Below, one piece after another: positions 12,720 through 41,423 of a stretch of 64,000 bases of DNA. Position 1 is the first letter of the stretch. Each line of letters begins with the position of its first letter. Under the pieces are notes generated by a model. It was not told the DNA's origin, ran no database searches, and saw only the letters and a list, made by a program, of their open reading frames with translations. The translations under genes and the position numbers were made by a program. The DNA comes from an uncultured Desulfosarcina sp. (lineage in GTDB: Bacteria; Desulfobacterota; Desulfobacteria; Desulfobacterales; Desulfosarcinaceae), in assembly GCA_963674945.2 (NCBI GenBank), contig CAXXWQ010000003.1, positions 2,336,001-2,400,000 of the forward strand, in the 5' to 3' direction.

Positions 12720-13460
12720 GATATCTTCTCCTTTCTTTGGGGAAACACATTGCCATGCCTGAACAATTTTGTGAAGATGGGGTTAATAAACCGCTTACTG
12801 TGGTGATGACAGTGCAGCCGTGTGGTTTAGCAAATCGGGGGCTGATGTCGATGCAATAGATATATCGCCAAAATCAATTGAGAACCAGAAAATAATTGCA
12901 GAATTATTGAGATTAAATATTTCTTGTTTTGTCATGGATGCAAATAATCTGGATTTTCCCGACGATGAGTATGATATTGTTTACGGGAATGCAATTTTAC
13001 ACCATTTAGATGTAAAAGAATGTTGTGAGGAAATATATAGAGATGTGATGGACGGGAATGCTTTTTTAAAACTCTTTCGCTTAGCCACTCCCTTTTGGAG
13101 AACTGAGGATGAGCACCCTTTAACGAAAAATGACTTTGCATTCTTTAAACAAAGATTTTCAGATTGTAATAATACACAATTTATACTTTCTGGTCTACCT
13201 TACTTTTTCTTTGTCAGAATAATGAATAATGTAATCCTTAAAAAATTAAAGATAAAATTAAAAATCCCATTGAATAATTCTATTTATTCTTTTTTTGACA
13301 AAGTTGATGATTTTTTATTTTGGCTTTTCCCATTCACGAAAAGTCGGGCATGGTTATGTTTGGTTGAATTACAAAAATAGCTTGAAGCAATAACCACTCA
13401 TAATTACATCGACGCTTCAATTTTTTCATTGTTCGAATTTGCTTACAAAACCTAAATACA

Positions 13461-13494
13461 AAAAAGGGGGTGCAGAACTAAGTCTGTAACCCCC
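13461..13494 (-). terminator. Hairpin terminator downstream of the tRNA fragment
   Basis: GGGGGTGCAGA/TCTGTAACCCCC stem flanked by an A-run (U tract on minus strand). Confidence 0.6.
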
Positions 13495-13505
13495 AATTGA
13501 TTTTA

Positions 13506-13550
<45 letters not shown>

Positions 13551-15491
13551 ACAGGGCCTTTGAGCTTCCTACATTCCTTATTTTTCAACAACTTATTGAA
13601 ATAAATACATCTTCCAATACCACGCTTTTTCCCATTTTGACCTGTTTTGGGTAGTTTTGGAAAAAAAGTCTCACACAGATTCTCACACGGAAATCATGGT
13701 GTATAGACACCATTGCACCCATAATTGCCCTCCAAAATTATTCCGGCCATCACCGACCTCAAACAACAAGCCGAAGTGTGTGTCACCGGCACCCCATCCC
13801 CCAAATTTACGATCTGCCATCAGGTTACGATCTACGAAACATGATGATCCCCTACCCTATTTTTATTTATGCGCGAACATGATGCAGACCTGTGTCCATT
13901 GTCATTTTACTTTCTATGCCAGATTGTTTTCGACCCCGTTTCAGTTTCCCGCCCATGTAAATAGTTGCACTGGTTTTTCTGACTGCATAATCTATTGTAA
14001 ATACAGATTGATTTGGCTGTTTATTATCATATTCAACCAAAATTTACTTAAGAAATTTACGTAATATACGAATATAACAGCATCACGTATCAAGCAGATA
14101 TCATTGAAAACCCGTTCCACGAGCATGGAGCTGTGCCATGACAACGAGACCGGATCAACTTGCAGCAGTTCCTTCTACGAACTCATCCCCTTGGACTGAG
14201 GGCGATATCCCTCGTCGTCAGGGGACATGCAATGTCATGTTGATTGCGCCTCATGGGCATCCTAATAACGATGGCAGAACATACTCGATTACCAGACTGG
14301 CGTCTGACGTGCTCGATTCATATGCTATCGTCAACAAAACTTACCAGAAACCACCTTTCAAAAGAAATAAAGACAGCAGCTATGTTATTGTGAATGGCAA
14401 AAAAGTTCGGCATGACCCAGATAAATTAAAGAAGTGGATCAACCTGAATCGGAAAAATCAGGTCGAGCAACATCTTGGAACAGAGTTCAAAGTTCCACTC
14501 CGCAATTTCGTCAACGAGATCATTCAAAAATACGGTAATGCCATCGTTATCTGGATTCATGGCATTGATGATGACAATCTAACCCCTAAAAATACATATG
14601 GTAGCCGTCCAGGTATGGACGCGCTGATTGGTATCGGTCAAGGTGAACCTGACAGCCTAACGGCCAGCAATAAAACCGTCGCCAAATTGATTAAATATCT
14701 TTCATCTAACTCAGCCAAACCCATAGCGGCCTCTCTTGCAAAGAAGGGTTCGGATTATTGTGGCTGGCACCAAAACGTCATGAATCAATTTTTTGTGAAG
14801 CAATACGGGCTGGACAAGGTCGAGTCCATCCAAATTGAGATCAAGAAAAAGGGGTTTCGAGAATCTGGTAATTACAAAATCACAGCTCAAGCCATTGCCA
14901 AATCCATTATGGAGATGACCTTGCAAAAGCCTAAAAAAGACACAGAGAGCGCCTCAGTGGACAGCGCTGACCAAAATGGCACCATCCAGCAAATCAAGGC
15001 TGGCGATATTGACCTCGACAATGATCAATTCAAAGCAAGGATCGATGAAATCGATTCCGACTCGATTGAATTCAAACGGCTGGTGGAATCAGTAGGAAAA
15101 GACGGGGTATTGAATAACATTATCGTCAGACTGTGTTGCGGTGACGGTGATGAAAAACCGTATCAATTGATTTCTGGTTTCCGAAGGATGACAGCCCTGA
15201 AGGCATCCAAAAATGGGTTAGCTGGTTTCAAAGATGAACCAGTTTGGGCTAGGGTGCTGGATGCCAATGTATCAAACGATGATGCCTACCGAATCAGCTT
15301 CACGGAAAACTTGGCCCGGAAAGATTTGTCCTTGTGGGAAATTGCTCAGGCATGTGCCGAAATAAAGAAGAAAATGGAAGTACCCGGTAAGATTAAGGGT
15401 GATATTGACGATTATATTGCCAGCTTGATCCAAAAAGATAAAAGGACTGTAAGACGTTATCTGAAGCTGGCATCAATTCAGAATAATAAAA

Positions 15492-16539
15492 CTGGGGTAT
15501 GCACTTGACTCCAGTGGCCACAACATATAGTGTACCAGTCTATGGAGGAAGATTACCCCAGAACGTTGATAGAATTTGAAAAACGATTTAGCTCTGAAGC
15601 TGGATGCACTGACTATTTGATGGCTCTTAGATGGCCCGAAGGCTTCCGTTGCCCTCATTGCGGTTCTGCATCCTCGTGGAGAACTAAACGATCCCAGTTT
15701 CATTGTACTGATTGTGGAAATCAATCTACGATAACTTCCGGTACAATTTTTCACGGCACCAGAAAGCCCTTGTCTCTTTGGTTTCGGGCTATGTGGCACA
15801 TTACAGGTCAGAAGTACGGAGCTAATGCACTTGGGCTTCAGAGAGTACTTAACCTTGGGAGTTATAATACCGCCTGGCAATGGCTCCATAAACTTCGAAG
15901 AGCAATGGTTCGTCCAGGACGTGACCGATTGTCCGGGATTGTTGAAGTTGATGAAACCTATGTCGGTGGGAAAAAGTCTGGAAAACGCGGTCGGGGTGCT
16001 GAAGGTAAAGCTTTGGTCGGTATTGCCGTGGAGGATAAAGGCCGAAAAGGAATTGGGCGAATTAGACTCTGGCACCTCGAAGACGCATCGGGAGATAGTC
16101 TGACTCAATTTGTACAAGAAATCGCCCAGCCAGGCAGCACCATCAGGACGGATGATTGGCCCGGCTATAGCAGCCTTGGCGATAAAGGATTTAAGCATAT
16201 TGCGATTCCATCGCATGACTTGAAGATTGTACATTTGGTAGCGTCGCTCATGAAACGATGGTTACTTGGTACTTATCAAGGGGCGGTCAGACCGTCTCAT
16301 TTGATGTACTATTTGGATGAATTCACATTCAGGTTCAACCGTAGAACATCAGTGTCTCGCGGAAAACTATTTTACAGGCTGGTCCAACAGGCCGTGATGG
16401 TGGACCCTGCCCCAGCTAGTACTCTTAAAGGTGCATCGTTACCGTTTTTGGAAGGGGCAGCAAATTTAAATCTCGATCCAATTGACGATGACCTGGGCCA
16501 CAACATATAGTATGTGCTGGATTTAAGTGCATACCCCAG
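15492..16539 (+). mobile_element. IS1595-family element (1048 bp)
   Basis: IR CTGGGGTATGCACTT at both ends; 8-bp TSD TAATAAAA (15484-15491, 16540-16547). Confidence 0.93.
15530..16510 (+). CDS. IS1595-family transposase
   Basis: CPHC...CTDC ribbon, VEVDETYVGG, TDDW, YLDEFTFRFNRR. Confidence 0.95.
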   Translation: MYQSMEEDYPRTLIEFEKRFSSEAGCTDYLMALRWPEGFRCPHCGSASSWRTKRSQFHCTDCGNQSTITSGTIFHGTRKPLSLWFRAMWHITGQKYGANALGLQRVLNLGSYNTAWQWLHKLRRAMVRPGRDRLSGIVEVDETYVGGKKSGKRGRGAEGKALVGIAVEDKGRKGIGRIRLWHLEDASGDSLTQFVQEIAQPGSTIRTDDWPGYSSLGDKGFKHIAIPSHDLKIVHLVASLMKRWLLGTYQGAVRPSHLMYYLDEFTFRFNRRTSVSRGKLFYRLVQQAVMVDPAPASTLKGASLPFLEGAANLNLDPIDDDLGHNI

Positions 16540-17259
16540 TAATAAAATTAAAGAAGCGGTCCATTCCGGTAACATTTCACCAACTATGGCCCTTGAAATA
16601 GGCAAAAAAGATTTGGTGAAAGACGATCCTGATAATATTTCAGCATTGTTGAATTATCTTGTTACACACCCCAAAACAACAAGGGAATTTGAAAAAGTTT
16701 ATAGAAATCTTGAATATTGTTGCGAATGCTCAAAGATGTCAATGGCTGCCGTACTGGAATGCAAAAACGCGGATGATTTCCTTTCCTTGCCAGACGATGA
16801 GCTTGGTGCTCGAATAGAAAACTTACACAGCAAGACGCATAAAGATTATCCAGAAATCCTCAAAGGCAGGGCCGGATCGTTGATTAAAGAAGCTGGTGAA
16901 ATCGATTCTGGATTGAAAAAAAAGGATGCCACTGCTGAATTCAAAAAGAACAATAAAGACATCGTCGATAAAGTCCACGAAGCCTTCCATAAATCAGATA
17001 TCGATGGAAAGTTCAAAATAATACCAGCTCCGGGCTCCGATGTAAATAAAGTCACGGTAACTATTACGGTTCCTAAAGATCAGATGTGGCAAGCTTTTGA
17101 TGCTATCTCGGGAGAAAATAATTCCCATGCTGAAAAGGTCATTCGAAAAAAGAAAACGAAGCCTTTAAAAGTCGTTTCGGCATTATCTAATAATGTCGAA
17201 AATTCTGAGTCTACCGTCAAAGGTGAATCAAAAACCGTATATAGAGGTAGTTTCAAGAA

Positions 17260-19908
17260 ATGAATGCTCAGGAATTGATTGACGAGCTGAAAGCCCAAGG
17301 CATAACCCTTCAATGGGATGGCGCCAGCATAAATTGGGAGGCCCCTTTTGACTTCGTACCTCCGGAAGAAATCGTCGAGTTGGTCAAGAAAAACTGGGAT
17401 GAAATAATAAAGCGTATAAATGGCCCACCACCGGAATGGTTGCTTAGTGGAACGAATATCGTAAGATTAACCCAAGGTGATTGTCTCGGGGTAATGGGAA
17501 TGTATCCAGACAACCTTGTGGATCTAATCGTAACCGATCCGCCATATGGGTACCAGTTCATGGGAAAGGATTGGGATAAGGCGGTTCCCTCGGTTGAAAT
17601 ATGGAAGGAATGTTTGCGAGTGCTCAAACCGGGAGGGTTTGCCTTTATCATGTCTGCCCCTCGTCAAGACGTCTTGGCTCGGATGATCATAAATCTTGAG
17701 GATGCTGGATTCAGAACAGGGTTTACCTCGCTATACTGGACTTATGCGAGTGGATTTCCAAAAGCCCATAACATCAGTAGATCAATAGATAACCGTGATG
17801 GTTATAAAGGGAAAATAGTTGGCTATAAAAAAGGAGTCGGTGGCGAAAATATAAACGATATTGTCAGAGGAAAAAAAGTCAGGAATACTACAGAATCAGG
17901 AGCTAAGGGCGTCGGAGCCTATGGATGCGGTGCTAAACAGGTGAGCGTAAACGTTCCTATCAGGGAACCCTCAGAAAAAGCAAAACAATTCAATGGATCC
18001 TATGGTGGATACCAACCTAAACCAGCTGTCGAAGTCATCATAATCGCTCAGAAACCATTGTCAGAAAAAACATTTGTTGACCAAGCGCTTTCGAACAAAA
18101 AAGGAATTACTTGGTTGGACGATTGTAGAATTCCATACGGTAATGAATCTGTCTGGTCGGCAGAAGGAGGGGTTCAATGGTCTCCGGAGAAAAAGTGGAA
18201 TAAAATAGAAAAAAGAAGTGGCAATGAATCAGGCCGATTCCCTGCCAACCTATTGATTAGCGATAATGTACTTGACGATGGATTAGACCATACCAGCCAC
18301 CCCATGGATTGTGTCGCAAAAAATGATGGTGGCGTGTGCTATGGAAAATATTCACCTCACAGGGCATTCAATCCAGGTGACACTGGAGGCTATTCTCGTT
18401 TCTTCTCATTGGATGCTTGGATACAAAAAAATCAGCAAGAGGGTTTGAACTTCAATAACCTTGAGGAGATTGTACAGCACAACCTCCCTTTTATGATTAT
18501 TCCAAAGGCCTCAAAAAATGAAAAAAATTTTGGATGTGATGAATTAGATGAGAAACCAAGTGCTTCCTCAGAATTCAGACCGAACCATACGAAAAAGGCA
18601 AAGAAAGGTGAGAATGGCAATCCGTATGGTCGCTGGAAAAAGCTAATAAATAATCACCCTACGGTAAAGCCCATCCTGCTGATGTCCTACCTCATCACCA
18701 TGGGAAGCCGTGAGGGTGACATAGTCCTCGACCCTTTTTGTGGTTCTGGGACAACCTGTTTGGCCGCGCGTCTCTTGAAACGGCCGTGCATAGGCATTGA
18801 AAAAGACCCTGGATATGCAAAAATCGCTGCCGCAAGAATACGGGAGTTGACTCTGCTGTCTTATATCAAGCAGGGACAACAGAAAAGAACCAATACAAAA
18901 TCTAAGGGAAGGGATCACAATCCTGTAAAAAGGACGAGTGCTGGTAAGACAGTCATCTTCCACGACAAATCTGGTATCGCCCTTACAAAACAGACTAAAA
19001 TCGACAGCCATAATTTCCCGTTCACTTTGAATACAGGCATCGGCTGTCATTTTGGTTGCCGGTATTGCTATCTCCAAGGGTATCCGTTCAATCGGCACGC
19101 CAAATTCCCCGTTGAGGCCAAAGTCAAGCTCTGGATTGCCGACAAATTGGACAAGGAACTCGGAAAATACAAGCACCTTCCTCAACATCTGAAACGAGTA
19201 CAGGTAAACGTTGCCGCAGAAGGATACCTGCCGTTAGTGATGTCAAAAGTGAAAAAAGAAAAAAACCGAGACATCATGGCCGAGGTGCTTCAAGTTTTCA
19301 GAAAGCACTGGGAAAAAGGCAACCATTGGATGGTGCACCTGATTACTAAAAGCCACATGGTCCTCAAACATCTCGACATCATCAGCGCCATGAAAGATCA
19401 GGTCCAGCTTGAATTAACCATCACCACTCTTGATGAAAATCGCAGACGAAAGATGGAGGGATTGGCACCATCGGTCGCGAAACGCTTGCAAGTGATAAGA
19501 AGATTTTCCTCCGCCGGCGTTTTCGTTCGCGCCATGTGCATGCCGCTGATCGGTGACCGAAAAGATGCCGAGACTATCAAGGCTGCCTGTTTTGAAAATG
19601 GCGCACGGGCCTTCAAACACAAGGGCGTCAACTATTGGGATGAAAAAGCCTTGCTGAATGGTGAAACTACGAAAGCTACCGGTCGGCATGACGATGTTTT
19701 CGAAGACCTTTTGGTAAAAAGCTGCGAACCATACCGGGTCGATAGTGAAATCCAGAAAATGACAGTCAAGATGCCGGTTATCGTGAATTCTGGGAAGACG
19801 AAACGTTGGAAGGGTTACAAAGAAGAGAACCTTGAAGATCGTGAAATGACTATGGAGGTATCTGGATATTCGGAGATCAATGACATTGATTGGGGATATG
19901 TAAAATAA
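17260..19908 (+). CDS. Fusion: small N-terminal domain + beta-class N4/N6 DNA methyltransferase + SPL-like radical SAM domain
   Basis: TDPPY, HPTVKP, DPFCGSGTT; then GCHFGCRYCY (CxxxCxxC), LITKS, TITTLD, APSVAKRL; ATGA overlap with upstream gene. Confidence 0.88.
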   Translation: MNAQELIDELKAQGITLQWDGASINWEAPFDFVPPEEIVELVKKNWDEIIKRINGPPPEWLLSGTNIVRLTQGDCLGVMGMYPDNLVDLIVTDPPYGYQFMGKDWDKAVPSVEIWKECLRVLKPGGFAFIMSAPRQDVLARMIINLEDAGFRTGFTSLYWTYASGFPKAHNISRSIDNRDGYKGKIVGYKKGVGGENINDIVRGKKVRNTTESGAKGVGAYGCGAKQVSVNVPIREPSEKAKQFNGSYGGYQPKPAVEVIIIAQKPLSEKTFVDQALSNKKGITWLDDCRIPYGNESVWSAEGGVQWSPEKKWNKIEKRSGNESGRFPANLLISDNVLDDGLDHTSHPMDCVAKNDGGVCYGKYSPHRAFNPGDTGGYSRFFSLDAWIQKNQQEGLNFNNLEEIVQHNLPFMIIPKASKNEKNFGCDELDEKPSASSEFRPNHTKKAKKGENGNPYGRWKKLINNHPTVKPILLMSYLITMGSREGDIVLDPFCGSGTTCLAARLLKRPCIGIEKDPGYAKIAAARIRELTLLSYIKQGQQKRTNTKSKGRDHNPVKRTSAGKTVIFHDKSGIALTKQTKIDSHNFPFTLNTGIGCHFGCRYCYLQGYPFNRHAKFPVEAKVKLWIADKLDKELGKYKHLPQHLKRVQVNVAAEGYLPLVMSKVKKEKNRDIMAEVLQVFRKHWEKGNHWMVHLITKSHMVLKHLDIISAMKDQVQLELTITTLDENRRRKMEGLAPSVAKRLQVIRRFSSAGVFVRAMCMPLIGDRKDAETIKAACFENGARAFKHKGVNYWDEKALLNGETTKATGRHDDVFEDLLVKSCEPYRVDSEIQKMTVKMPVIVNSGKTKRWKGYKEENLEDREMTMEVSGYSEINDIDWGYVK

Positions 19909-20000
19909 TTGATTTTAAGCCAAGCTAAAGTCTAATCGGGTATCTTAGATCGCACTAAAATAAAATCAAAATATTAACTCCAAATTAAGGGGACTATACC

Positions 20001-20591
20001 ATGGACATTTTTCCATTTGAAGACGAGACAGAATACAGATACGAGATACCATATAACATATTTGGAGGCGGACCTATCGAAACTGCACGAAGAAATGACT
20101 ATATAAATGCACTTAGAAGAGGAGCTTTGAAAAGAAATGGTAATTTTACGATTCTCCGGCATATAGGAGAACATTTTTTAACGGATACAAATGATGTCCC
20201 AAATGAAGACATACTGATTATAAAAACTTACGGAAAGATACCATTGCCAGAAAAAGCTTTGAAGCTTTTCGTTGATTATTTATCCCAAGAATCTCTTTAT
20301 GTGGGAGAAGGGGACCAATGGAAAAAATATCTACATAATGAGCAACCAAGATCTTTGACTGAGGATGATGTCAATGGGATTGAACATGGACATGGTTCCT
20401 ATTCCGTTTACGAGATCAAACATAATGACGATGGAATGATCTATTTAAAAGCTGATCATTTTGGCTATGAAGGATCTTCAAAAGAAAGCATAGAACTGAA
20501 AAAAAATGATATTAATACAATCATATCATTGGGTGATGAAGCATTAAAAAAACTCCAAGATACATACACAGATATTGTTGGTCGTGCTTAA
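20001..20591 (+). CDS. Hypothetical protein
   Basis: 196-aa ORF with AAGGGG RBS; no recognised motif. Confidence 0.65.
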   Translation: MDIFPFEDETEYRYEIPYNIFGGGPIETARRNDYINALRRGALKRNGNFTILRHIGEHFLTDTNDVPNEDILIIKTYGKIPLPEKALKLFVDYLSQESLYVGEGDQWKKYLHNEQPRSLTEDDVNGIEHGHGSYSVYEIKHNDDGMIYLKADHFGYEGSSKESIELKKNDINTIISLGDEALKKLQDTYTDIVGRA

Positions 20592-20735
20592 TAACCTGTA
20601 TAATAAACTCGCAAAATGAAAAAATGAAATCGAGATACCAGATGGTCCTCGGTTCAAACTTTAAATTCTTACGAGAAGATCAACACATTTATTAACGTTT
20701 TCATTATCTCCAGGATATGATTTTCGGAGGATCAT

Positions 20736-21333
20736 ATGCCCATCTATGAAAAAAGCACTAATCAACTGCTGACGGAATATATCACCGAAAATTGCAAACC
20801 AGGAGAGACTATCAACAAGGAAGAAATTGTTGACTGGTTTTCACGAAACTATCCTAGAATCAAATCAAACACAGTCGGATGCCATATCATTAAATTTACC
20901 ACCAACCATCGGACAAGGATTCACTACGGTGCAAATCCCAGGTGTGACATGCTGTTTCAGCTCCCAGATAAAAGATTGCGCTTGTACATTCCACCAGATA
21001 GAACCAGGGCTACAACTCTATCGTGATGAAGAGGACAATACGATTACTGGTGTCGAATTCGATGCCGGTGGCAGACGTATTGATATTCTTGCTGCTGATA
21101 AAGAAAACAATCCAGTTATTATCGAATTGAAGGTTTCAAGAGGTTACGAGCGGACGGTGGGCCAATTGCTCCGATACAAGGCTTGGGTCAGGGAAAATAT
21201 AGCGGAAGGCCACAAGGTTCGAGGCGTAATCATAGCGAAATCTATCAGCCCCGACCTGAAAATGGCGGTGAGTGAAATCCAGGATATCGATATTTTTGAA
21301 TACGAACTAAAACTCGAACTCAAAAAGATTTAG
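20736..21333 (+). pseudogene. NucS/EndoMS-like PD-(D/E)XK endonuclease with N-terminal HTH-like domain, frame-broken near 20990
   Basis: RIDILAAD...VIIELK...VGQLLRY in one frame; N-domain with GGAGG RBS in another frame. Confidence 0.75.
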
Positions 21334-22194: not shown

Positions 22195-24798
22195 TTACTC
22201 GTCCCCCCCAGCTTCACTTGCAATGGCACCTATAAGGCCGCTTTTGCCTTTGGAGTACATAAAGTCCACAATTCCCTGAATGAGCCCGTCAATCTGGGCC
22301 AAAATGTTAGGCTGATCCCGTACGATAGCCCTGGCTTTTTTCAGGCAATTCTCCACTTCCTTAAACAGGCTTACATCTCTGGGGTTTTCCGGGTCCATGA
22401 ACTCAGGCTCCTTGATCCTAAACCTGAGCAGTGCAAGAAAGAGTAAAGCCCCTTGAAAAAAGATTTGCGCGATCGTCCTATTATTCACTTGCTTACGTAT
22501 GGCTTCAGCCGCCCGCTTGGCGAAATGCACTGCCATATCACTTTCCAGTGCATCATAGGCATCTTCTCGATAAGCCAATACCCGTGCCAAAGCTTTTGAG
22601 GATTGTAGAGTAAACGGGTTATTTACGCCACTTATGGATCTCCGGTAAATAGCATCAAATAAAGCTGCAAAATGTTGCTTGCTATTGAAGCATCTGCTTG
22701 CCGCTTCAGCAAAATAGCGCCAAGTATTACCATAATTATTTCCCTCATAGGTCAAAAAATAATGCATTAAATAATCTGATATTGCTTCGGGGGTTTTACC
22801 CCAAAGCCATGTTGCCCTCACAACGTATTTTATCGCTTCAGAAGGTGGATTTCGGCTATGAAGAAACTCGTTTGCTCTGGATTCTATTTTGGAGGCAATC
22901 GCCGTCACTAATGTGTCACCATATTCAGATCCGGAGATTCCATTCTCATCTATTCTCTTTCTCGTTTCAAATATGTTTGTTTCCTGATCAAAAAAAGAAG
23001 AACATAATACCCTCTTCATTTCGTCCAATTTTTCTATAAAATAGCTTCGTGAAACATCCTCCGAAAGTGCAATGAACCCTTTGAACCTGGTATCCGTAAA
23101 GGCATCCTTGCTCGTGGCAACCTCGTAGTGCAAAGTCTCTGGCCATCGTAGCTCTGGTTCTGGCAGGTCCTTTTCCTCCACCTTGATCATATTAGAATAA
23201 TCGAAAACCCTTGCTCTGCCTTGGAATGTTTCCTCCTTTTCGGGAACGATGACAACGCGGGCCAGTCCACTGGCAGGGCGCATCTCCACTTCAATTGTCA
23301 ATTTGACGTCTCTGGCTGGAATGGAAGGGAATTTCACCTCGCCGTAGCGGTACGGCGACTCGGTCCCTGTTTCCTGAGCGTCCTTGCGCATATAGACATG
23401 CAAGGCATCGGTATGTTTTTTCAGGAAAAAACGGTTCGGAATGCTGCGGGTGTAGGTTTTACCTCCGGCGCACTCCTTGGCTTCCACAATATCCATCCAC
23501 TCCAACCCACCCCCAACTTTTTCCGCATACAATGCCAGCCTTGGCAAGGTGTCCAAGTATGTGGGAAGCCCCGCAGCCAGGCGCCGGCCGAAGAGCCTTG
23601 CACCCGTTGCGACAGGGTCCTCTTCTGCACTTGCCAGCCAAATTGTATCTGGGCAAGCGTCTGGCCGGCATGGAAGGTTTATGAGTGCTTCTTGAATCCA
23701 TGCCTGAGTAGTTACAGGGCAAAGCGGCCCGCAGATCACCGCCCCGCGCAGGCGGCCATTGCGCTGCAACAAGGCTCGGCTCAGCGAGGCAGTTAAGTGC
23801 TGTCCCCAGGTTTCCTCCTTAATTTCGCGCTTGCGAGGGAGAATAGAACTGGATGTCTTGACCAAATCCAGCAGCAGGTCGCCGCCATCGGTGACGCAGC
23901 AGACAGACTCTGCAAACAGTTTCTTTGGAGGGTGCCAGTACCTCCACCCGTCAGCAGTGGACCAGGCTCGCGGAAGCTCGTGTTTTTTCCATGGTCTGCC
24001 AGCAATGGCGGCCCATAGTTCGGGAAAGTTGGTGAAAGTTTGCCAAAACGCCCCATGATCTATCGAGCATATTGGGTCCGCCTTGGCGGATAGGGCGCAA
24101 GCCCACTGCCAGCCAGCAGGACCGGGCGAGTGCCGGGGACGATTGCGTACGGGTAATATGAAGCGGTTGCCGCCGAAGACCTCTTCACGCAGTTCGAATG
24201 TCATGAAATCCATTCCGTCTGGCCCGATGTATACCACCAGCATCCAATCGCCAGTTTCCAAATCCTCGGGCATGGCCTTGTCCAGCCACTCCATGGCAGC
24301 GGCCACGGTGCGCCAGACCATTGAGATCCTGTGCCTGACGCCGCCAAATGCCCGGAGCAGCGTTTCCTGATGGTATTCGTCTAAATGGTCGGGAATGGCT
24401 ACTACCGCCCGGTTATCATTCTTAGCGTCAAAACCGCTGCCATGCAACAGGTCCTTCAGGTGGGCTGCCATGATGGAAGCGAGCGGAATCGAGACACCGC
24501 CTCCCACGTTCCAGCGGACCGGAACTGTAGTGTCTCCCGCGTCCACCAGCAGTGACCAGGCCACGGGAATAGGCACTCGCCGTAGCGGTTCGCCGGGCTT
24601 AACCCTCGCCTCGGGGGGCCAGTATAAACCGGAATGCACGCGCTCCTGCTCGGCCTCATCGCCGGTTCGGATCTGGCCAAGAGCGCGCTTGGGCAACACT
24701 GCGTCCGCCACGTAAAAACCGCTTGTCTTGAGCACGCCATCCAGATCAGCAACACAGTCGTTCAAGCCGAAAGCAGATACACCATACACGCTGGTCAT
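22195..24798 (-). CDS. Divergent Hsp70-like (actin-fold) protein, CnuD-like
   Basis: AVVAIPDHL...Q, VAAAM, LVVYIGPDGMD parallel Hsp70 NBD motifs; ATGA overlap at 24795-24798. Confidence 0.65.
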   Translation of the reverse strand: MTSVYGVSAFGLNDCVADLDGVLKTSGFYVADAVLPKRALGQIRTGDEAEQERVHSGLYWPPEARVKPGEPLRRVPIPVAWSLLVDAGDTTVPVRWNVGGGVSIPLASIMAAHLKDLLHGSGFDAKNDNRAVVAIPDHLDEYHQETLLRAFGGVRHRISMVWRTVAAAMEWLDKAMPEDLETGDWMLVVYIGPDGMDFMTFELREEVFGGNRFILPVRNRPRHSPGPAGWQWACALSAKADPICSIDHGAFWQTFTNFPELWAAIAGRPWKKHELPRAWSTADGWRYWHPPKKLFAESVCCVTDGGDLLLDLVKTSSSILPRKREIKEETWGQHLTASLSRALLQRNGRLRGAVICGPLCPVTTQAWIQEALINLPCRPDACPDTIWLASAEEDPVATGARLFGRRLAAGLPTYLDTLPRLALYAEKVGGGLEWMDIVEAKECAGGKTYTRSIPNRFFLKKHTDALHVYMRKDAQETGTESPYRYGEVKFPSIPARDVKLTIEVEMRPASGLARVVIVPEKEETFQGRARVFDYSNMIKVEEKDLPEPELRWPETLHYEVATSKDAFTDTRFKGFIALSEDVSRSYFIEKLDEMKRVLCSSFFDQETNIFETRKRIDENGISGSEYGDTLVTAIASKIESRANEFLHSRNPPSEAIKYVVRATWLWGKTPEAISDYLMHYFLTYEGNNYGNTWRYFAEAASRCFNSKQHFAALFDAIYRRSISGVNNPFTLQSSKALARVLAYREDAYDALESDMAVHFAKRAAEAIRKQVNNRTIAQIFFQGALLFLALLRFRIKEPEFMDPENPRDVSLFKEVENCLKKARAIVRDQPNILAQIDGLIQGIVDFMYSKGKSGLIGAIASEAGGDE

Positions 24799-26540
24799 AC
24801 CAGTTCTCCCAGTACTTCTTCGATGACAAGGGCAATCCACTCCACAGACTCAGCCCATAGCTGCTGTTTGGTTGGGATCTCAACAAGATGTACACGTCCC
24901 TCCCTTGAAGGGATCAAATCAGGCTTCAATACCTCCATGTCACTGGCAACCACGAAAGCACGCAGATCAGGGAATCCCTGTGCCCGATCGCTTAGAAACA
25001 TACTGTGTCTGTTGAGTGCGACCGCTGCAGAATCTGCAATAGTCTGCCATGAAGGACGAATAGAAGGGGTACAGGCAGCGGTATGTACTGCCCACACGAC
25101 AACAACTGTTTGCTTTGAACCGTCCAGTGGGCTGAACACTAAGTAGAGGTGGCCGCCCATTCGCCCAAAATGCCTCGTCACCTTGTGCTCTTTGGCCAGG
25201 TCGGGATGAACGACTTCCAGGGCTACGGCCCTGCCTGCCATCCCATTCGGAGGACGGACGAGGAAAGGCCCCGGTTCAGAGCCACGCTCGATGCGCGTTC
25301 CCAGCCGCTGCTCGGGTAGAATTTCGAATACTGAAGCCAGTGTTTCCTCGAATCGATACCCTACCTGTCCAGATGTCTCGCCCCGCAAGGCCATGAGTGC
25401 GGCGTTCACCAGCATGCGGCTAATGTCGGCCCAAGTACGGGCCTGCCAGTCCCACAAGCGGTCCTCCTCGTCCTCCTGACGCAGCAGCTTGAGGTAAAAA
25501 TCCCATATTCGCTTGTAGCGGACGTCGTTCTGCAGCACATAATTTGGTTTCGGAACGGAGGGAGGTCTGGTGATGTTTGCCAACTGTGGTAATTGCCTGA
25601 GCTCAGCGCAGATGTTGCCGAAGGAATTAACTTTGTTGCCACGCTCTGAATACATGCGCTGCTCCGGGGTGCAGTCAAAGTTTAGATAACGGCGAGACTC
25701 CAGGCGGCAGCGGACCAGGAAGTCCTTGAGCACCTTGTTTTCCAGAGTATCCAACGACTCTCGGCGCGAAACGCCCATAAGTTGATGCCGGTTAGTAGCT
25801 GCCTTTTCTGTAGATGTGGTGCCAGGCTGTCGCATGTACCATTGCAGGCAAGTGGCGTCGGTCTCGGCAACGCGCGGTGCTGGCATCATCTTTCGTTCGC
25901 GTACCAGGATACGCCTTGCGGCATGCACAACGCCGGGCAACTGCTGGCGCATAGCGTCCGCGATATGCACGATGAGCGCCATACGCGGCTCATTTTCACT
26001 CTGGGCGAGCTTTTTTATGTAATCTACAATGTTTGACCATGGCAGCTTGCCTTCGCGATGGGTTTCCTTGGACTCCAGAATACACTCGTCAAAAAAATTG
26101 GACCAAGCCAGGATGGTGCGGTAAAGTGGGCTTTCGTCCCATTTGCCATTAATATTTTCTGCGCTCGGTACTGCGTATGAGGTGGAAAGATATACCTCAC
26201 GAGCGCCCTCTTTACTATGGATGGCCAGGGCCGTCTTTATGGAGCTATCATCGTTTCTGTTTGGTGTTTTAAGTTTTTGCGACACGGCCTTCTTGGCAAC
26301 GACGCCATGTGGCGTCTGGTAGAGCCGATATGCGCCGTCTGCCGCCTTAAACCTTGGCCCAAAGGGCTGAAAACGTTCGTAACGCCTGGTCAGTAGTACA
26401 GTGGTGTTTTCGGATACCGAGAGTACCGGGCTGCCGTAAAATGGCACGGTGACCGGCCCGTAGATGAGGTTAACGGTTTCGTCCCCGTTGCCTACGGACC
26501 ATGGCCACAGATGCAGTTGGACGTCCACGGCACCGTTCAT
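24795..26540 (-). CDS. DUF2357 McrC-like protein
   Basis: DTLENKVLKDFL, PNYVLQNDVRYKRIW; directly after McrB-like gene. Confidence 0.8.
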   Translation of the reverse strand: MNGAVDVQLHLWPWSVGNGDETVNLIYGPVTVPFYGSPVLSVSENTTVLLTRRYERFQPFGPRFKAADGAYRLYQTPHGVVAKKAVSQKLKTPNRNDDSSIKTALAIHSKEGAREVYLSTSYAVPSAENINGKWDESPLYRTILAWSNFFDECILESKETHREGKLPWSNIVDYIKKLAQSENEPRMALIVHIADAMRQQLPGVVHAARRILVRERKMMPAPRVAETDATCLQWYMRQPGTTSTEKAATNRHQLMGVSRRESLDTLENKVLKDFLVRCRLESRRYLNFDCTPEQRMYSERGNKVNSFGNICAELRQLPQLANITRPPSVPKPNYVLQNDVRYKRIWDFYLKLLRQEDEEDRLWDWQARTWADISRMLVNAALMALRGETSGQVGYRFEETLASVFEILPEQRLGTRIERGSEPGPFLVRPPNGMAGRAVALEVVHPDLAKEHKVTRHFGRMGGHLYLVFSPLDGSKQTVVVVWAVHTAACTPSIRPSWQTIADSAAVALNRHSMFLSDRAQGFPDLRAFVVASDMEVLKPDLIPSREGRVHLVEIPTKQQLWAESVEWIALVIEEVLGELV

Positions 26541-26543
26541 GGT

Positions 26544-28958
26544 CTATTCATTCTCCAAAGACCTGGTGACACCTCGCCAGGTGAACATGCCTATGTTCTT
26601 GCTTTCATCGATGGCCGATGCTATGGCTGAGGATAGTTCTGCATCTCCAAGCGAGTCGATGACGCTGGCAACCTCCTGGAGGCAGCCCAGAGTCTTTGGC
26701 TCGGCCACGTCCAGCCCACGCAACTTGGGAATGATCTTCTGCTCTACCTGGTCTGCAAAAGCCAGTTTGTACCGGTTGTCCTGGCCGGCATCTGGGTAGT
26801 TGGCCAGGTACAACGCAATGGCGTCTTGAGCACGGTAGCCGAAGGGGCGTCCAACTTTCTCTAATGCGTTGTTCAAACAACGGATCCACTCTCTCATCTT
26901 GGGTTGCCATTCATCACTGCCATCAACTGGTTTGCACCAACTGCTCCACTGGTCCCGCGTAAGAAAGGGGCGAGTCATTCTTTCCTGCCCACCGTTATCA
27001 TTATGCTGACGCCGATCGTCAGGCTTGCCAAATCGCAGCAAATTGGAACGGTCCAGCACCTTGTCGGAGAGTGTTTGGGTGGTTTCGTCCTCGTTCATAG
27101 TGCCCACGAACAAAACGTTCTCCGGCACCCAAATACGGAAGCTGCGATTGCTGCCCGGACCGGTATCCAGTTCGATCTCGGCCTTCTCGCGATGTGCCGG
27201 GTTTGAAGGGTTCTCTACGAGCCGACGCAGTTCCAATTTTGAGAGAAACTCGCTAAAGTAATATTCGGTACGAGCCAAGTTCATTTCGTCCAGTAACACC
27301 ATAATCATGCGTTCTCTTGGCCAGTCGTAATCCAGGCCGGGGAACTCGCTGGGATCGTAGTTGTAGGGGTCCATGCGTACCAGGGCGCGGGATAGTTCTG
27401 TTGCTTTATAACTTTTTTCCAGATAGTTATAGAAGCCAAAGAGGTCCTGTGGTGAGTCCCAACGCGGCTGCACTGGAATAACCAAGGAATGGAGACCCAT
27501 GTGTTCGGCATACTTCACTGGCAGCAGGGTCTTGCCCGTGCCAGATACACCTGCAAGCACGGTCAGTGGGTTGATGCTCTGGCATTTTAGCGAAGTGTGA
27601 AAGGCATCGATGACCCTGGAAGGAAAGTAGAGATTGCTCTCCCGCAACTCTTTTTTAAATTGCTCCAAGGCCAGGTATTCACCTTTAGTACCTGTGGTGG
27701 GGGCAAACTCGGTTTTCTTGAAACAAACCGCATTTCGCTTTAGCAGGTCCTCATAGGCTTTGTGCACTTCCTCTGTTTCTTTGCCGGACATTTGCCCTTG
27801 GAGCTTTTCGACACTTTGTTTTAACAATGTCTTGCGAGCCACAAATTCTTCAACTTGCTCCTGTTCCCGTTGTCTTTTATTTTTCAGGGACTTTAGCTCA
27901 TCAAGTAATTCTATCACCTCTTTCTTTGCGCTATTGTATTTTACGATTGTATCTTTCGTCTGTCTTAATTCGTTTGTTAATAATTCTTTCTGTGTAACAA
28001 GAACATTTACCAGAGCACCAAGCTCCGCCTTCTCCTTACGTATAATTGATAACTCAGCCTTGGATTTATCAGCTTCGTGGGATGTCTCTACAACCTCATT
28101 TTTTTTAGTTTTTAGCTCTTCGCTCGCCTTCTCTAAGGCCATCCGCAGCTTACCCACTTTTTCTACAAAATTATCATGTTCTTTTCTCAAATAATCCAGA
28201 CGAGATTCCAGTTCATTTTTATTCCCCATCAGTTTATTAACAATAGCTTCAGCCTCAGCTTGCTCCCTATTAATTTCAGCAAATTTCATTTTGCTTTGTT
28301 CTAATTCATGAGAGACCTTTTGAGCATCCAAACGTTTTAATTCGGTCTCCTTGGCTGTAATGTCTCCTAAAGCGCGAATCTCAGCCACTTGATTTTCAAG
28401 TGTTACCTGCTCTGCCTTAAAAACCACAAGCTTCGCCTCAACGTTCGCGAAACTTTCGATTGTTTTTTGAGAGTCGTCTATTTTCTTTTGTAGTTGCTTC
28501 AATTCTTCACTAAGTGAAGCAGCCTCACCACGTTTGGCCTCTAAATTGCCAACTTCTTGATTGAGTTTCTCAAGTGTTTGAGTTACAAAGTGGCGTTGAT
28601 TTTCCAGTTCTCCCACCTCTTTACGTAAAATCTCGTTTTTTTGATCCTGAATTGCACCTTTTTGAGCAAGGTCATCAAGAAGTGCTCGCAGCCGTTCTTG
28701 TTCTTCACGTTCGGCCTTTACTCGATTTAGTTCATCGCGCTGGATATCTAACCAATTTCTAAGTTCTTTCACATCAGCTTGAAGATTTTCCTTCTTTGCT
28801 GCAAGTTCTGCTGCACTTATGCCATCTTCAACCAAAGCTTTCATACGCCGTTGATAATAAAGATAATGTGTTAATGACAAAAGGACGAGAATTATCGCTA
28901 AAGCTGCAGCGAATATCCAGATTGTGGTAGGGAGAAACGGAATTGTTATACCGTCCAT
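26544..28958 (-). CDS. McrB-like AAA+ GTPase with N-terminal TM helix and long coiled coil
   Basis: GVSGTGKT, LDEMNLAR, GTMNEDETT (NxD), KVLDR, QKIIPKL; ~350 aa heptad-rich region. Confidence 0.9.
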   Translation of the reverse strand: MDGITIPFLPTTIWIFAAALAIILVLLSLTHYLYYQRRMKALVEDGISAAELAAKKENLQADVKELRNWLDIQRDELNRVKAEREEQERLRALLDDLAQKGAIQDQKNEILRKEVGELENQRHFVTQTLEKLNQEVGNLEAKRGEAASLSEELKQLQKKIDDSQKTIESFANVEAKLVVFKAEQVTLENQVAEIRALGDITAKETELKRLDAQKVSHELEQSKMKFAEINREQAEAEAIVNKLMGNKNELESRLDYLRKEHDNFVEKVGKLRMALEKASEELKTKKNEVVETSHEADKSKAELSIIRKEKAELGALVNVLVTQKELLTNELRQTKDTIVKYNSAKKEVIELLDELKSLKNKRQREQEQVEEFVARKTLLKQSVEKLQGQMSGKETEEVHKAYEDLLKRNAVCFKKTEFAPTTGTKGEYLALEQFKKELRESNLYFPSRVIDAFHTSLKCQSINPLTVLAGVSGTGKTLLPVKYAEHMGLHSLVIPVQPRWDSPQDLFGFYNYLEKSYKATELSRALVRMDPYNYDPSEFPGLDYDWPRERMIMVLLDEMNLARTEYYFSEFLSKLELRRLVENPSNPAHREKAEIELDTGPGSNRSFRIWVPENVLFVGTMNEDETTQTLSDKVLDRSNLLRFGKPDDRRQHNDNGGQERMTRPFLTRDQWSSWCKPVDGSDEWQPKMREWIRCLNNALEKVGRPFGYRAQDAIALYLANYPDAGQDNRYKLAFADQVEQKIIPKLRGLDVAEPKTLGCLQEVASVIDSLGDAELSSAIASAIDESKNIGMFTWRGVTRSLENE

Positions 28959-28994
28959 GTTGACCTCTCAATTGCGTTAGTATATTTCATCGGA

Positions 28995-30470
28995 CTATTG
29001 AACTTCGGTTGGTTCAATAGATTCCTTTAATTGACTCTCCAAAGTCTTAATTTTGTCATCAACCTGCGAAAGTTGCTGCATCATACCATCTGAAAGATGC
29101 TTTATTTCTTGGAGTTTTTGTGAAATTAGACTTGATTCGGAACCAAAATTATTATGCACCTTGGAAATGATATCTATCAACTCCTTTGATTGATTGTTAA
29201 GGGTGGATTGTGTTGATTCAAGCCCGTTTGCTGTTCTTGCCATATGAAGGTTAAATTCATCAAACTTGGTCACATCCTTTTGAATGTCATCCAAATATCC
29301 TTTTAGTGTTTTTGCTCTGCTATCGAATTCCGTTATTTGCTCTGTGAAGCTGGTTAAATTGCCATTAAGTTGCTTAATGTGATCATCCAAGTTTGTATTT
29401 TGCGAACTGAGCGTTATTACCATTCGATTGATAGAATTAATTGGTACCTCAATGGTTTGAGCCAACTGCTTAGCCTGGGTATCTACATTTTCTGATGCGA
29501 CTTCAATGCCTCCTATAGTAGCTCTCAACTTTTCGACAGTCTTATCTACTGTTCCTGAAGCGGTATCGATTGTTTTTGAGCTGACTGAGATAGACTGAGA
29601 AGTTTTACTCAATGATTCACAAGAGGTTCCAACACGTTTAGTTTCACCAGATAGATTTTCCACTTGGTCATGGATGGTCGCAATAGCCTCCTTTAATTTT
29701 GCAGCTTGGCCATGCAATTCGTTGATACTTGCATCTGTTTTCTGATTCGTGGCTTCAATCTTATCAGCTATAAAATTGAACCGATTTCCAAGTTTAGCCA
29801 ATTCGGATCTATCTTCCGACATTTCCGAGAGTACTTGCTTAAGATAATCCTTCTGTTTTTCAAGACCTGCAAGATCTTCCGAAAGCTTTCGTTCTTGAAT
29901 TTGGTACGCTTTAATTTTATCTTTGTGATCCCTGCTTTGTACTTGTAATTGGGCAACCTCGTCCTTTAACTCTTCCGCATTATTGCTTGATACCTTAATA
30001 TCATTTTGCAATTGCGCGTAAGCCCTTCTTGCGACCTCTTTGTCCGAAATTACCTGATTTCGTTCTGCGATGGCCCTATCCAACATTTCTTGAGCCGATT
30101 TAACCTGGGTAGTTAGACTTTCAAACTTTGCTTGCCTTGCCTGTAACTCACCTTTTATTTTGTCCCCAAGGGCTTTGAGGTTATCGTTTTCATCCTTGAG
30201 TGATGGCAATTCCTTTAATATGGTGGCATGTGATTGAAGATTGATCTCCAATTGTTCACGATCTTTTTCTAATCGTACTCGTTCCACCGCCACGCTTTGA
30301 CGCTCTGCTTCGACATTGACAATTTTCCAACCAGAAAGAATCATGAGGATAATTATCAGTATCACAGCTGCGGATAGAAGCCAGACATGCGGAAAGGCCA
30401 TATCAAGCTGGCTTGATTTCTTTCCTTGGTGGTTTTTCGAACCACTCTTAATATTGTTTAAATCATTCAT
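28995..30470 (-). CDS. Membrane-anchored coiled-coil protein
   Basis: Hydrophobic segment VWLLSAAVILIIILMILSGW followed by continuous heptads. Confidence 0.8.
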   Translation of the reverse strand: MNDLNNIKSGSKNHQGKKSSQLDMAFPHVWLLSAAVILIIILMILSGWKIVNVEAERQSVAVERVRLEKDREQLEINLQSHATILKELPSLKDENDNLKALGDKIKGELQARQAKFESLTTQVKSAQEMLDRAIAERNQVISDKEVARRAYAQLQNDIKVSSNNAEELKDEVAQLQVQSRDHKDKIKAYQIQERKLSEDLAGLEKQKDYLKQVLSEMSEDRSELAKLGNRFNFIADKIEATNQKTDASINELHGQAAKLKEAIATIHDQVENLSGETKRVGTSCESLSKTSQSISVSSKTIDTASGTVDKTVEKLRATIGGIEVASENVDTQAKQLAQTIEVPINSINRMVITLSSQNTNLDDHIKQLNGNLTSFTEQITEFDSRAKTLKGYLDDIQKDVTKFDEFNLHMARTANGLESTQSTLNNQSKELIDIISKVHNNFGSESSLISQKLQEIKHLSDGMMQQLSQVDDKIKTLESQLKESIEPTEVQ

Positions 30471-33400
30471 TTTCGCTCCATGCTTTTTGTATTTTGCTTA
30501 CACAACCCTTCATATCCTCGCGTAACTGGTACGTCCAAAACCGGAGAACTTTCCATCCCATCGCCTGCAATTGAATATCTCGCCACGTGTCATCAGTTTT
30601 ACGTGATCCATCTGAATTGCGATGACAAGCACCATCTACCTCGATATCTATCTTTAAAGGTGGCTCCCCTTTTTTTATTAGGGCAATATCCAGCCGTCTA
30701 CTAGCAACCGGAAATTGTGGTCTGGGTTCAAGGCCTACAGCTATTAACGCATCAAAAAGCATTTTTTCAAATGGTGAGTCATGCGGATGCCATGGCCCCC
30801 TTGGGGAAAAGTAGTCAGCTTTTTGGGGGGCAGCTGTGAGTCGCTCTATGTGTCTTATTTTGGAATTTCGTGCCCATTTTCGGTTTCCTACAATATGAAG
30901 CACGGCCCTTGCGCGGCTGGCCGCCACATTAAAAAGATTTGCGTTCTCTCTTAAAAATCCCTTGGAACCGACAGGCATCTCTGATCCGGCACATAAACTA
31001 AAGATGATGACATCTCGTTCGTCTCCCTGAAATCCATGTGCTGTATCGATGTGAGTCTGAGAGGCTTCCAACCAATAATAGAGATTACTATCAGATTCAT
31101 ATAACGCATCGCGAATGCGATTTGCCTGCTTTCGAAATGGCGTAACAATCCCCAGAGATCCACGAAACTTATTTTTAACTAGCATTTCCCTTACAATGTT
31201 TAGGATGGTGTCAACTTCTTCCTGGCAAAAGCAACCGCTCCCTCCTCCACTTTTTACGTCACCTTCAACCTCTGTCCAATGGATGCCTGGAGGAACCCCA
31301 TGAGGGGCTTTTAGATGTGTCAAATCTGTGGCCACTCTTAGTCGGCCACTATAGAAAATATCGTTTGAATACCCAGCGATTTCGGTGGCGCTGCGGTAAG
31401 TTTCACTCAGAAACACTGGTTCGGCATCGTTCGTACCTGCCAACAAATCATAGAGAGAATGATCGGAATAGGAAAAACGGGTGTCTTCAATACGCGTAAT
31501 GCCAATTTCTCGCTGTAAGAGTGTATCCTTTGCTGTGGATAATTTCGAGCAGTGAGTTAACTGAAATGGGTCCCCTACCACACCAACACGTTTGGCCCGG
31601 AAAAGCAGTGGAATAGCAGATGGGATATCAGACTGACTGGCTTCATCTACAATGACCAGATCAAATAACCCAGGCATAAGAGGTAGGCGAGATCCTGCTG
31701 ACAGATTGGTTACCGCCCAACATGGAAAGCTGTGAAGAACATGAGGTGCCCGTTCTTTGAGTATCGAAATTGCTTCCGCTCGAATCTTTCCTTCATCAAG
31801 ACCTGTCCGCATAGCCCTTAGCGTGGTCTTTAGCCCATCCATCTTTTCTCTGCTAACACCCTCTGGTAATCCTTTCCTATCATTTAGGTCAAGAGAAATG
31901 GCTCTTTGAACAATTTCTTCAAGCCGTTGCGTTATTTCTGATATCGAAGTGGTCAGTACCTCCAATGGTGGATGAATACGAGCCTCGTCCTCCAATGGCC
32001 TACACTTAATACGCGTTTTGGAATACTGTGCTGCTTTCTCTAATAGGATGAAATCGCCATATAATTTATGTAATTCTTTTGGTGTGAGCCATAGTCGCAA
32101 ACCTGGAGTTCCAGGAATTACCTTCAACTTCCTTCTAGCAAGCCAATATAAAGGCGTAAGCATAGCACATCGCCAGAAGCGAACCACGGTTTGGAAAATT
32201 GTGAGGTGTGTAGTGGTTTGGGCAAAGGATTTCGAAATGAGAGATATGTGGCTTATGGATTTGTAAGGAAAAGATGATGGTCTGACATCAAGATATGGGG
32301 CCATGCCATGAGGCAAATCTCTGCTAAGGTGTGCCATTTTTTCTTCAAGGCGACCAATTTCAGATCTGAGGTATGCCACTTTTTTGATGATAAGGGCAGT
32401 TTCACCACGTTGACGCAGTAACTGAGAAATCTCCTCTTTAACAAATGATAGTTGTCGAGATGCACCTGGATTTAATTGGTGAAGCAGCATCTCCCCTATT
32501 GCATGGGAGAAAGTGAAGTTGAGATTGGGATCCTCCTTTGAATTCGTACGTACCATCAAGGTCTGCCCATCATCATCAACAAGACGATTGTATACGGCAT
32601 CGATCGCTTTGTGGTTCCGACTGGCGAAAAGGAGGGATTGGTTTTGAAGCCTGGCATTGGTTGCCGTCGCCGATACAACTTGGCTTTTACCAGTCCCGGG
32701 AGGGCCAGTTACAATGGTTAGCGGCCGTTTGAGAAGTGACGCGACAGCAAGGCGCTGTTCTGCGTTTAGCAATGTCGTATCAATAACGGTTTCTTCATGG
32801 ATCAAATCATCCAATGGTTGCTTAGTATGCTCTTCTTGGGCGAAAACCATCCGCAAAGCTGTCTGATCTAAGATCCTATCCGACGCCCTTTCGATAGCGG
32901 CCAATTCTTTCAACAATGTAACTGTAAAACGGGTTTTTTTAGCTACCATTAAAACAGCACGGTTGTATATTCCTGTATCGAAGGGTGTCTTCAAGGGCGT
33001 ATCAGGGATCGCGTCAATTTTCAGTGCTTCGATGATCTTGCTTGGCATGAATGCTTTGAGCGCAGATGTGAGACCTTCAATATTCGGTGAGGATTCACCG
33101 CGTTCAATTCCAGGGGCCTCGTCATTTGGTCGGGATCGATTGATGAATCCACATGCGGTCAGAAAACTACTTTGATTATTTCCCCGCCTATTAAATGCGA
33201 ACTCCAACCAATCGAAATTGACCTCTATTTGAGGATTATCATTTTTTAAAAAGAGCCCCGCGCTTGCTATGGAGTATTCGACTGGAAAATGAAAAACAGG
33301 ACGTATTATTGATATCGGAGGTTCCCCACTACGCTCTTTAAATAGGGCTTGAATTGGATAACCCACCACGAGAGTGTCTTCATCGGTTGGTCCCGGCAAA

Positions 33401-35772: not shown

Positions 35773-35854
35773 TTCAACTCAATCAAGCATGAGGGGCAGT
35801 TGCTGGTCTTTTCCGCCGGCGGTTGCCCTTTTTTGCGTTTATGGAGGTTCACCC

Positions 35855-36412: not shown

Positions 36413-36422
36413 ATCCTCTCCT

Positions 36423-37990: not shown

Positions 37991-38014
37991 GGTACTGTTC
38001 AGATCCTTTCCTGT

Positions 38015-41406: not shown

Positions 41407-41423
41407 TCGAAAGGAAGTTAATC

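Follow-up and report, generated by a model that had tools for sequence, protein, structure and literature searches.

A hydrolase-ParB gene and a methyltransferase-radical SAM fusion on a tRNA-Arg island of an uncultured Desulfosarcina: a possible DNA-tethered adduct-removal module

We examined 64,000 nucleotides of an uncultured Desulfosarcina sp. (assembly GCA_963674945.2, contig CAXXWQ010000003.1, positions 2,336,001 to 2,400,000 of the forward strand; this whole stretch is referred to as the window, and positions are counted in it unless a contig or locus is named). The organism probably lives anaerobically by reducing sulfate. The window carries a two-gene operon at 14138..19908: gene 1 joins a hydrolase to a ParB protein, and gene 2 joins a TubC_N-like domain, a DNA methyltransferase (MTase) and a radical S-adenosylmethionine (SAM) domain resembling spore photoproduct lyase (SPL). 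The two genes are island cargo made of swappable modules, and the recurring partner of SPL-like radical SAM domains here is the hydrolase rather than the MTase. The reading that we prefer, with a probability of roughly 0.45, is a DNA-tethered adduct-removal module in which the MTase is an anti-restriction passenger.

Gene 1 encodes a hydrolase-ParB protein and is broken by IS1595

Open reading frames (ORFs) were called at 14138-15508 and 16514-17263 for the pieces of gene 1 and at 17260-19908 for gene 2, as in a first-pass annotation made from the letters alone. That annotation had given gene 1 as 689 amino acids (aa) once IS1595 is removed and had the two genes overlapping by ATGA at 17260-17263, with gene 2 in one frame; all of this held, and the restored gene 1 has no internal stop. 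The insertion sequence (IS; 15492..16539, +, transposase 15530-16510) is 1048 bp long, has terminal inverted repeats and is flanked on both sides by an 8-bp target duplication (15484-15491 and 16540-16547). It matched the IS1595 model NF033547 at 184 bits (cut-off 75), and 12 identical copies are present in the genome. Because it separates the 5' part of gene 1 (14138..15491, +, 451 codons) from the 3' part (16548..17263, +), a full-length product is likely in this genome from gene 2 only.

The N-terminal domain of gene 1 (14198..14935, +) is predicted to be a zinc amidohydrolase with the zinc carboxypeptidase-like fold of N-formylglutamate amidohydrolase (FGase) and poly-gamma-glutamate hydrolase (PghP). 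A model of residues 21-266 (predicted local distance difference test score, pLDDT, 93.8) matched the FGase 2Q7S with a Foldseek E of 5e-8, a Z score of 18.1 and a root-mean-square deviation of 2.8 over 191 residues; the next fold matches were poly-gamma-glutamate hydrolases and carboxypeptidases. In the ESM Atlas the domain matched three unnamed clusters, two of them mostly viral and one archaeal, and one FGase cluster. The fold call rests on the predicted model, since sequence searches of the PDB with the domain returned nothing; the window domain matched neither PF05013 nor any other Pfam family, and the best-scoring homologue reached 24.5 bits against the PF05013 cut-off of 28.9. Among 35 aligned hydrolase domains both histidines are invariant (35/35), the aspartate is kept in 34 and the glutamate in 33, and the asparagine is near-invariant; the window copy retains them all (H39, D45, N104, H141, E234). 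Going by the carboxypeptidase fold in general rather than by a mapping onto the window protein, we take these residues to bind the zinc ion and the carboxylate and to supply the catalytic base.

A ParB N-terminal domain and a helix-turn-helix (HTH) follow at 14981..15491 (+), and homologues suggest that the 3' part of the gene encodes a helical region and a ParB-type C-terminal domain. The match to ParB_N had an E of 8e-5, under the cut-off, and the curated ParB hidden Markov models (HMMs) all scored under theirs; a ParB-like PHROG family matched at E 2e-20. The region can be aligned with ParB/Spo0J structures. It has GFRR and ENLAR, instances of the GxxR and ENxxR motifs expected of a ParB CTP clamp, and read from its motifs it appears to be a full three-part ParB, with N-terminal domain, HTH and C-terminal domain. 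No ParA partner was found among the 40 window proteins scanned. A palindrome at 13696-13713 (7-bp arms) was considered as a conserved parS site and rejected: it is unique in the genome and, among 218 loci, present only in the window's own. A conserved YxGxF tail of gene 1 was likewise considered as a docking motif; more plausibly, it merely reflects the ribosome-binding site from which gene 2 is translated.

Gene 2 joins a methyltransferase to an SPL-like radical SAM domain

Gene 2 (17260..19908, +) encodes 882 aa in one uninterrupted frame. Its N-terminal domain (17260..17424, +) resembles TubC_N over aa 4-50, with an E of 0.003 in the window protein and 42-49 bits, above the cut-off, in orthologues. 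The beta-class N6A/N4C DNA MTase that follows (17437..18864, +) matched N6_N4_Mtase (PF01555) at 112.8 bits (cut-off 26.7), and its DPPY motif (93-96) precedes FCGSG (493-497). It is of a phage type (phrog_67), with matches in 1488 phage records.

The C-terminal domain, which we named rSAM-A (18946..19908, +), matched Radical_SAM (PF04055) at 35.4 bits (cut-off 29.5), and its cysteine triad (C596, C600, C603) is conserved in 69 of 69 aligned domains. The six best Foldseek matches of its model (pLDDT 94.6) were all SPL (best E 2e-7, template-modelling score 0.53). The SPL family HMMs TIGR04070 and PF20903 gave no match at E 0.1, and a PDB sequence search returned nothing beyond E 0.3 matches to SPL. 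The domain also scored far under the NCBIfam cut-offs of PA0069 (NF033668, 81 of 360 bits), Rv2578c (NF038135, 49 of 430) and mobile pair B (TIGR04470, 40 of 410). We found no conserved cysteine in the stretch likely equivalent to the SPL hydrogen donor Cys140 (4FHC), as placed by an unreliable bridging alignment (hhalign probability 3%); another cysteine is present in 47 of the 69 aligned domains. Overall, the domain calls that the first-pass annotation made for both genes were borne out.

The fusion is real and conserved but rare

The gene pair is neither unique to this genome nor an assembly join. A metagenome contig (L082) carries an intact 690-aa hydrolase-ParB gene, the ATGA overlap and an 804-aa TubC-MTase-rSAM gene, 70% identical to gene 2 over aa 1-550 and 78% in the radical SAM domain. 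The same pair is thus intact elsewhere, so the fusion is not an assembly artefact. A third, partial MTase-rSAM fusion is P0003. Between the window and L082, the ratio of nonsynonymous to synonymous divergence (dN/dS) is 0.03-0.17 in every alignable domain for which it could be computed, at a dS of 1.5-3.7; the linker between MTase and radical SAM domain is unconserved (4% identity). Contigs from two public runs of one sample, perhaps the source sample, cover 16513-20200 with zero differences, and no joint lacking the IS was among the matches listed. The rarity of the fusion could be taken as a sign of misassembly or read-through, which we consider most improbable given the independent intact copy and the run contigs that cross the junction without differences. 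The MTase-rSAM fusion is real and conserved but rare.

Radical SAM domain and methyltransferase mostly occur apart

The first-pass annotation had supposed that the radical SAM domain elaborates the product of the MTase, and this idea fared badly. We surveyed the best 80 of 132 metagenome loci with rSAM-A, many of them short or near-copies: the domain was stand-alone in 74, had a longer upstream frame in 4 and was cut in 2, and it was fused to an MTase in 1. An ORF with MTase motifs lay within 3 kb in 2 of the 80, namely L082 and L116, where a separate beta-MTase lies 1.5 kb from rSAM-A; none was found in the 14 loci flanked by 3 kb or more on each side. Among 122 homologous proteins (120 of 165 matches and two from another search), 104 had the length of a stand-alone protein, 13 were truncated, 5 were extended and a single one had an MTase motif. 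In the nearest relative of the window domain (88% identity), the fusion partner is DUF1848. The MTase, for its part, matched in 5 of 401 genomes of the order at E 1e-30. The same TubC-MTase stands alone in G245 and in G383 has a DnaX-like ATPase as its fusion partner, both genomes without rSAM-A, and G389 has plain MTase copies without TubC_N; in what appear to be the same 401 genomes, rSAM-A itself matched in G000 and G296 only. The MTase-rSAM fusion is a lineage-specific combination and less important than the first-pass annotation held.

The hydrolase recurs with DNA-binding, clamp and radical SAM domains

The hydrolase is present in 36 of the 401 genomes of the order and was collected as 304 cluster representatives. 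We examined 170 hydrolase proteins, 25 plus 145 more from the best 150 of these representatives. At least 98 carry a ParB or ParB-HTH/DUF1016_N-like domain, and 27 are fused to an SPL-like radical SAM domain of one of four types, with a visible CxxxCxxC in 23. Other fusions were to a DnaX-like loader (3), a beta clamp (2) and an MT-A70 adenine MTase (1). On a FastTree of 146 hydrolase domains, from which 24 short ones were excluded, the radical SAM fusions are scattered, with 13 changes for 15 rSAM-B rows.

What lies directly 3' of the hydrolase-ParB gene also varies: MTase-rSAM-A in the window and L082, a 62-bp rSAM-A remnant and no MTase in G017, DUF1848 in G034, and an ADP-ribosylglycohydrolase with SRAP on the opposite strand in G240. 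Mobile-element or restriction-modification (RM) markers were found in 23 of the 38 rSAM-A loci of at least 6 kb, and 7 of the 80 carry a further gene labelled as SPL-like or DUF5131. Some neighbours of rSAM-A are of repair type, among them an SPL-family protein and NADAR (L145, L147, L149, L156) and, in a phage, Nth (L162). Three of these loci (L145, L147 and L156) are small integrative elements that combine an SPL-family protein with rSAM-A, with NADAR in two, resembling a compact repair-like kit.

The viral collections searched yielded one rSAM-A locus and one hydrolase locus, and no informative base-modification cluster. In L164 (9977-10693) a stand-alone hydrolase lies on a 436-kb viral contig, and in L162 (9962-10849) rSAM-A lies near an Nth glycosylase on a phage contig. 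A plasmid search returned only distant relatives (about 30%), and a scan of genome contigs with one protein as query returned one locus. DnaX-like loaders and beta-clamp domains that are carried by elements and joined to the MTase or to the hydrolase were seen in L213 (3373-5730) and in P0212, P0215, P0219, P0278 and P0285. Eight proteins (P0161, P0175, P0179, P0182, P0193, P0194, P0226, P0235) have an apparently intact hydrolase and a degenerate second copy before the HTH.

This wider network of hydrolase, clamp and SPL-like radical SAM domains on Desulfobacterota islands is apparently undescribed. Our literature searches found no description of an FGase-type hydrolase joined to ParB/DNA-binding, clamp or radical SAM domains, which surveys of base modification and their supplements may nevertheless list, and no paper on DUF1848 with radical SAM, PA0069 with radical SAM, or a radical SAM-DNA methyltransferase fusion in phage hypermodification.

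A tethered adduct-removal module and its alternatives

Our analysis shows which domains are present, how they fold, that their motifs are intact and under purifying selection, that the genes lie on an island and that the modules are swapped; we infer every catalytic step of the following mechanism. The ParB or HTH part would keep the hydrolase on the DNA of the element. Like enzymes of the FGase/PghP fold, the hydrolase would cleave an amide beside a free carboxylate, in an N-acyl or an amino-acid or peptide remnant on DNA. The radical SAM domain could then, like SPL acting on its own lesion, cleave the bond that is left without using oxygen, and the fused MTase would merely shield the element from restriction, independently of adduct removal. 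We prefer this reading because the hydrolase is so often tethered to ParB or HTH domains and repeatedly, at scattered places in its tree, fused to SPL-like radical SAM domains, because repair-type neighbours recur, and because the fold of rSAM-A matches SPL. Genome loci also speak for it: across 43 of them (L074 was dropped for want of a hydrolase ORF call), an SPL-like radical SAM gene was in the locus of 8 of 17 tethered hydrolases and 0 of 26 stand-alone ones, and a mobile-element or RM marker in 12 of 17 and 0 of 26. SplB-like COG1533 radical SAM enzymes have also been tied to SOS repair contexts (PMC3765255 and PMC8565304, each in part).

A number of observations weigh against adduct removal. 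Gene 1 is disrupted in each of its three copies from the same genus (G000, G017, G034), so there it is dispensable or costly. No radical SAM domain was detected on 143 of the 170 hydrolases; hydrolase and rSAM-A occur together in 1 of the 80 rSAM-A loci, and rSAM-A in 2 of the 36 hydrolase-bearing genomes, so neither requires the other. In the comparison of tethered with stand-alone hydrolases, some of the markers came from the very loci compared (self-hits in L045, L050, L053 and L059), and L047 was counted as tethered on account of its radical SAM domain, which is circular. An integrase fragment lay beside the stand-alone hydrolase L076 in an earlier clustering. We found no shared SOS-type box in front of gene 1, 70 rSAM-A genes or 40 hydrolase genes. 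Gene 1 has none of five LexA box types upstream of it, and the host's two lexA-like genes and recA have no common dyad, so these boxes may not be the host's. Finally, an approximately unbiased (AU) test rejected a single clade for the three MTase-fused rSAM-A domains (p-AU 0.005; the group was set by architecture and the test run after the first tree was seen). This fits domain swapping or repeated fusion, and the fusion may have been selected more than once; repeated independent fusion, if so, would favour coupling of the two domains.

Such coupling is what the first-pass annotation proposed: the MTase would make N6-methyladenine or N4-methylcytosine, the fused radical SAM domain would elaborate this methyl further to give a new base, the complex would be loaded by ParB, and the hydrolase would trim an adduct. 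Three sequences (window, L082 and P0003) have the fusion, which is under purifying selection and retains the active-site motifs of both enzymes. This, its possible double origin, the MT-A70-fused hydrolase and the beta-MTase of L116 all fit the scheme. The many stand-alone rSAM-A loci, the scarcity of MTase motifs near rSAM-A or in its homologues, the DUF1848-fused nearest relative and the MTases alone or with DnaX in genomes without rSAM-A make it quite improbable. Alternatively, radical SAM domain and clamp-borne hydrolase might write a base modification in which the MTase has no part, for instance by radical chemistry at the thymine methyl followed by amide trimming, and so shield the element from restriction. 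The same co-occurrence of hydrolase and radical SAM domains would serve this reading as well as adduct removal, the loci are often near type I RM genes, and ParB homologues activate phage thymine dioxygenases on double-stranded DNA (PMC13229309, in part). We nonetheless think it unlikely: the recurring neighbour families scanned include no glycosyl-, amino-acid- or kinase-type transferase, repair-type neighbours recur, and the ParBs that activate 5mYOX lack a DNA-binding domain, while the window ParB keeps its HTH.

It is similarly doubtful that the domains share no pathway at all. Deletions and swaps at the island end would then have fused unrelated cargo, as in polyvalent proteins, with ParB-HTH a KorB-like regulator, the hydrolase cutting an amide in a protein or small molecule, and MTase and radical SAM domain acting separately. 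Partners are indeed freely exchanged, the linker is hardly conserved, every same-genus gene 1 is broken, and 26 of the 43 genome loci are stand-alone hydrolases in a non-mobile context. Yet nearly every partner identified acts on DNA (four radical SAM types, clamp, clamp loader, MTases), and the gene pair with its overlap persists across near-saturated synonymous divergence.

Beyond the proposed adduct-removal module of this operon, we tentatively suggest a general scheme, somewhat short of an even bet: a clamp, either ParB or a beta clamp paired with a DnaX-like loader of its own, carrying a zinc amidohydrolase, an SPL-like radical SAM domain and sometimes an amino-MTase, may constitute an undescribed DNA-scanning machine on islands of anaerobic Desulfobacterota. 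It would perform oxygen-free base chemistry, either erasing amino-acid or acyl adducts, phage hypermodifications included, or writing a new modification. To our knowledge, SplB-like radical SAM enzymes outside spore formers are common and have no established substrate. A repeated fusion partner whose zinc-hydrolase fold points to amide cleavage, and which sits on a DNA clamp, would narrow the candidates to acyl and amino-acid DNA adducts and bring the question within reach of experiment. The answer might show how DNA adducts are undone or put in place in anaerobes independently of the AlkB/TET route, which needs oxygen.

Relation to known systems

SplB (PDB 4FHC/4FHG; TIGR04070) and SplB-like COG1533 proteins share with rSAM-A the CxxxCxxC followed by YLQ and include its best Foldseek match, while PA0069, Rv2578c and radical SAM mobile pair B are its best HMM families, the mobile pair having a similar mobile location. 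Unlike SPL, to which it is about 13% identical, rSAM-A falls far under every curated cut-off of these families and is here fused to an MTase. SPL, MJ0683-like and DUF5131 proteins are grouped in Megacluster-5 (PMC9477430, in part).

FGase (2Q7S, PF05013) and PghP (3A9L, PF05908) have the same fold as the window hydrolase (Z 18.1 and 14.5), and the family shows the likeness in its invariant PH and HG and near-invariant D, N and E. It differs in its 13-14% identity, its lack of Pfam membership and its fusion to DNA-binding, clamp and radical SAM domains. The MTase resembles the beta-class orphan amino-MTases of phages and integrative elements (PF01555, phrog_67; CcrM and M.RsrI fold) in having motif IV before motif I, and its stand-alone relatives sit in integrative elements (G245, G389); gene 2 departs from these in its TubC_N-like N-terminal domain and its exchangeable C-terminal partner, rSAM-A or DnaX-like.

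The ParB-activated phage T-dioxygenases described in part of PMC13229309 also couple ParB to a DNA-acting enzyme; the window differs in having no 5mYOX and a ParB with HTH. Polyvalent proteins are mobile-element proteins that join unlike domains, MTases included, as the window genes do (PMC5512222, in part). The hub domains named there (MPTase, ArdC-N, MuF) are absent from both window proteins, and the main text of PMC5512222 does not mention 'radical SAM', 'amidohydrolase' or 'clamp'.

Island setting and neighbouring genes

The mobile-element setting suggested by the first-pass annotation was confirmed, as the operon lies inside a 58-kb tRNA-Arg island. One end is marked by a 45-bp att core, the 3' half of tRNA-Arg-ACG (13506..13550, -), and the other att lies at G000:C3:2407859, adjoining a tyrosine integrase; a third copy lies inside the tRNA at C3:2436992. 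With copies of the tRNA-Arg 3' end at both ends, the operon begins about 590 bp inside one end of the island. GC content is 0.47 for the island, 0.44 for the operon and 0.51 for the contig. A second island of 29 kb lies in tandem at the same tRNA-Arg (G000:C3:2407859-2437068; L010, L011).

A non-coding stretch 5' of gene 1 (13734-13860) is 72-75% conserved in two relatives (L009 2956-3084; L186 8093-8177); Rfam gave 0 matches across 13000-21000, which includes it. Scans for promoters and terminators gave results close to chance (18 seen against 13.4 expected). Promoter-like hexamers (10/12) lie at the right end of the IS (16482-16511), facing gene 2, in a scan not above chance overall.

The operon contains no cognate endonuclease. 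The ORF that comes next could be placed in no family, and the genes downstream include a probably split NucS-like gene and others that are McrBC-like. The former consists of DUF7669 and NucS_C in two overlapping frames (20736-21333) and is probably a single gene. The latter belong to a defence-like cluster (22195-34017, -) comprising a helicase with REase_MTES_1575/DUF559 and Mokosh/Hhe-like scores, a coiled-coil protein, an McrB-like AAA protein (PDC-M26A), a DUF2357 McrC-like protein and an 881-aa protein without a family. Further on lie RadC, Rad52, PD-(D/E)XK and DUF932 genes (35789-42377), and beside them a sigma-54 activator, a 698-aa protein without a family and a DUF1848 gene (43527-49132). 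The island also carries two serine hydrolase genes of the beta-lactamase fold (PF00144) at 55002-58550.

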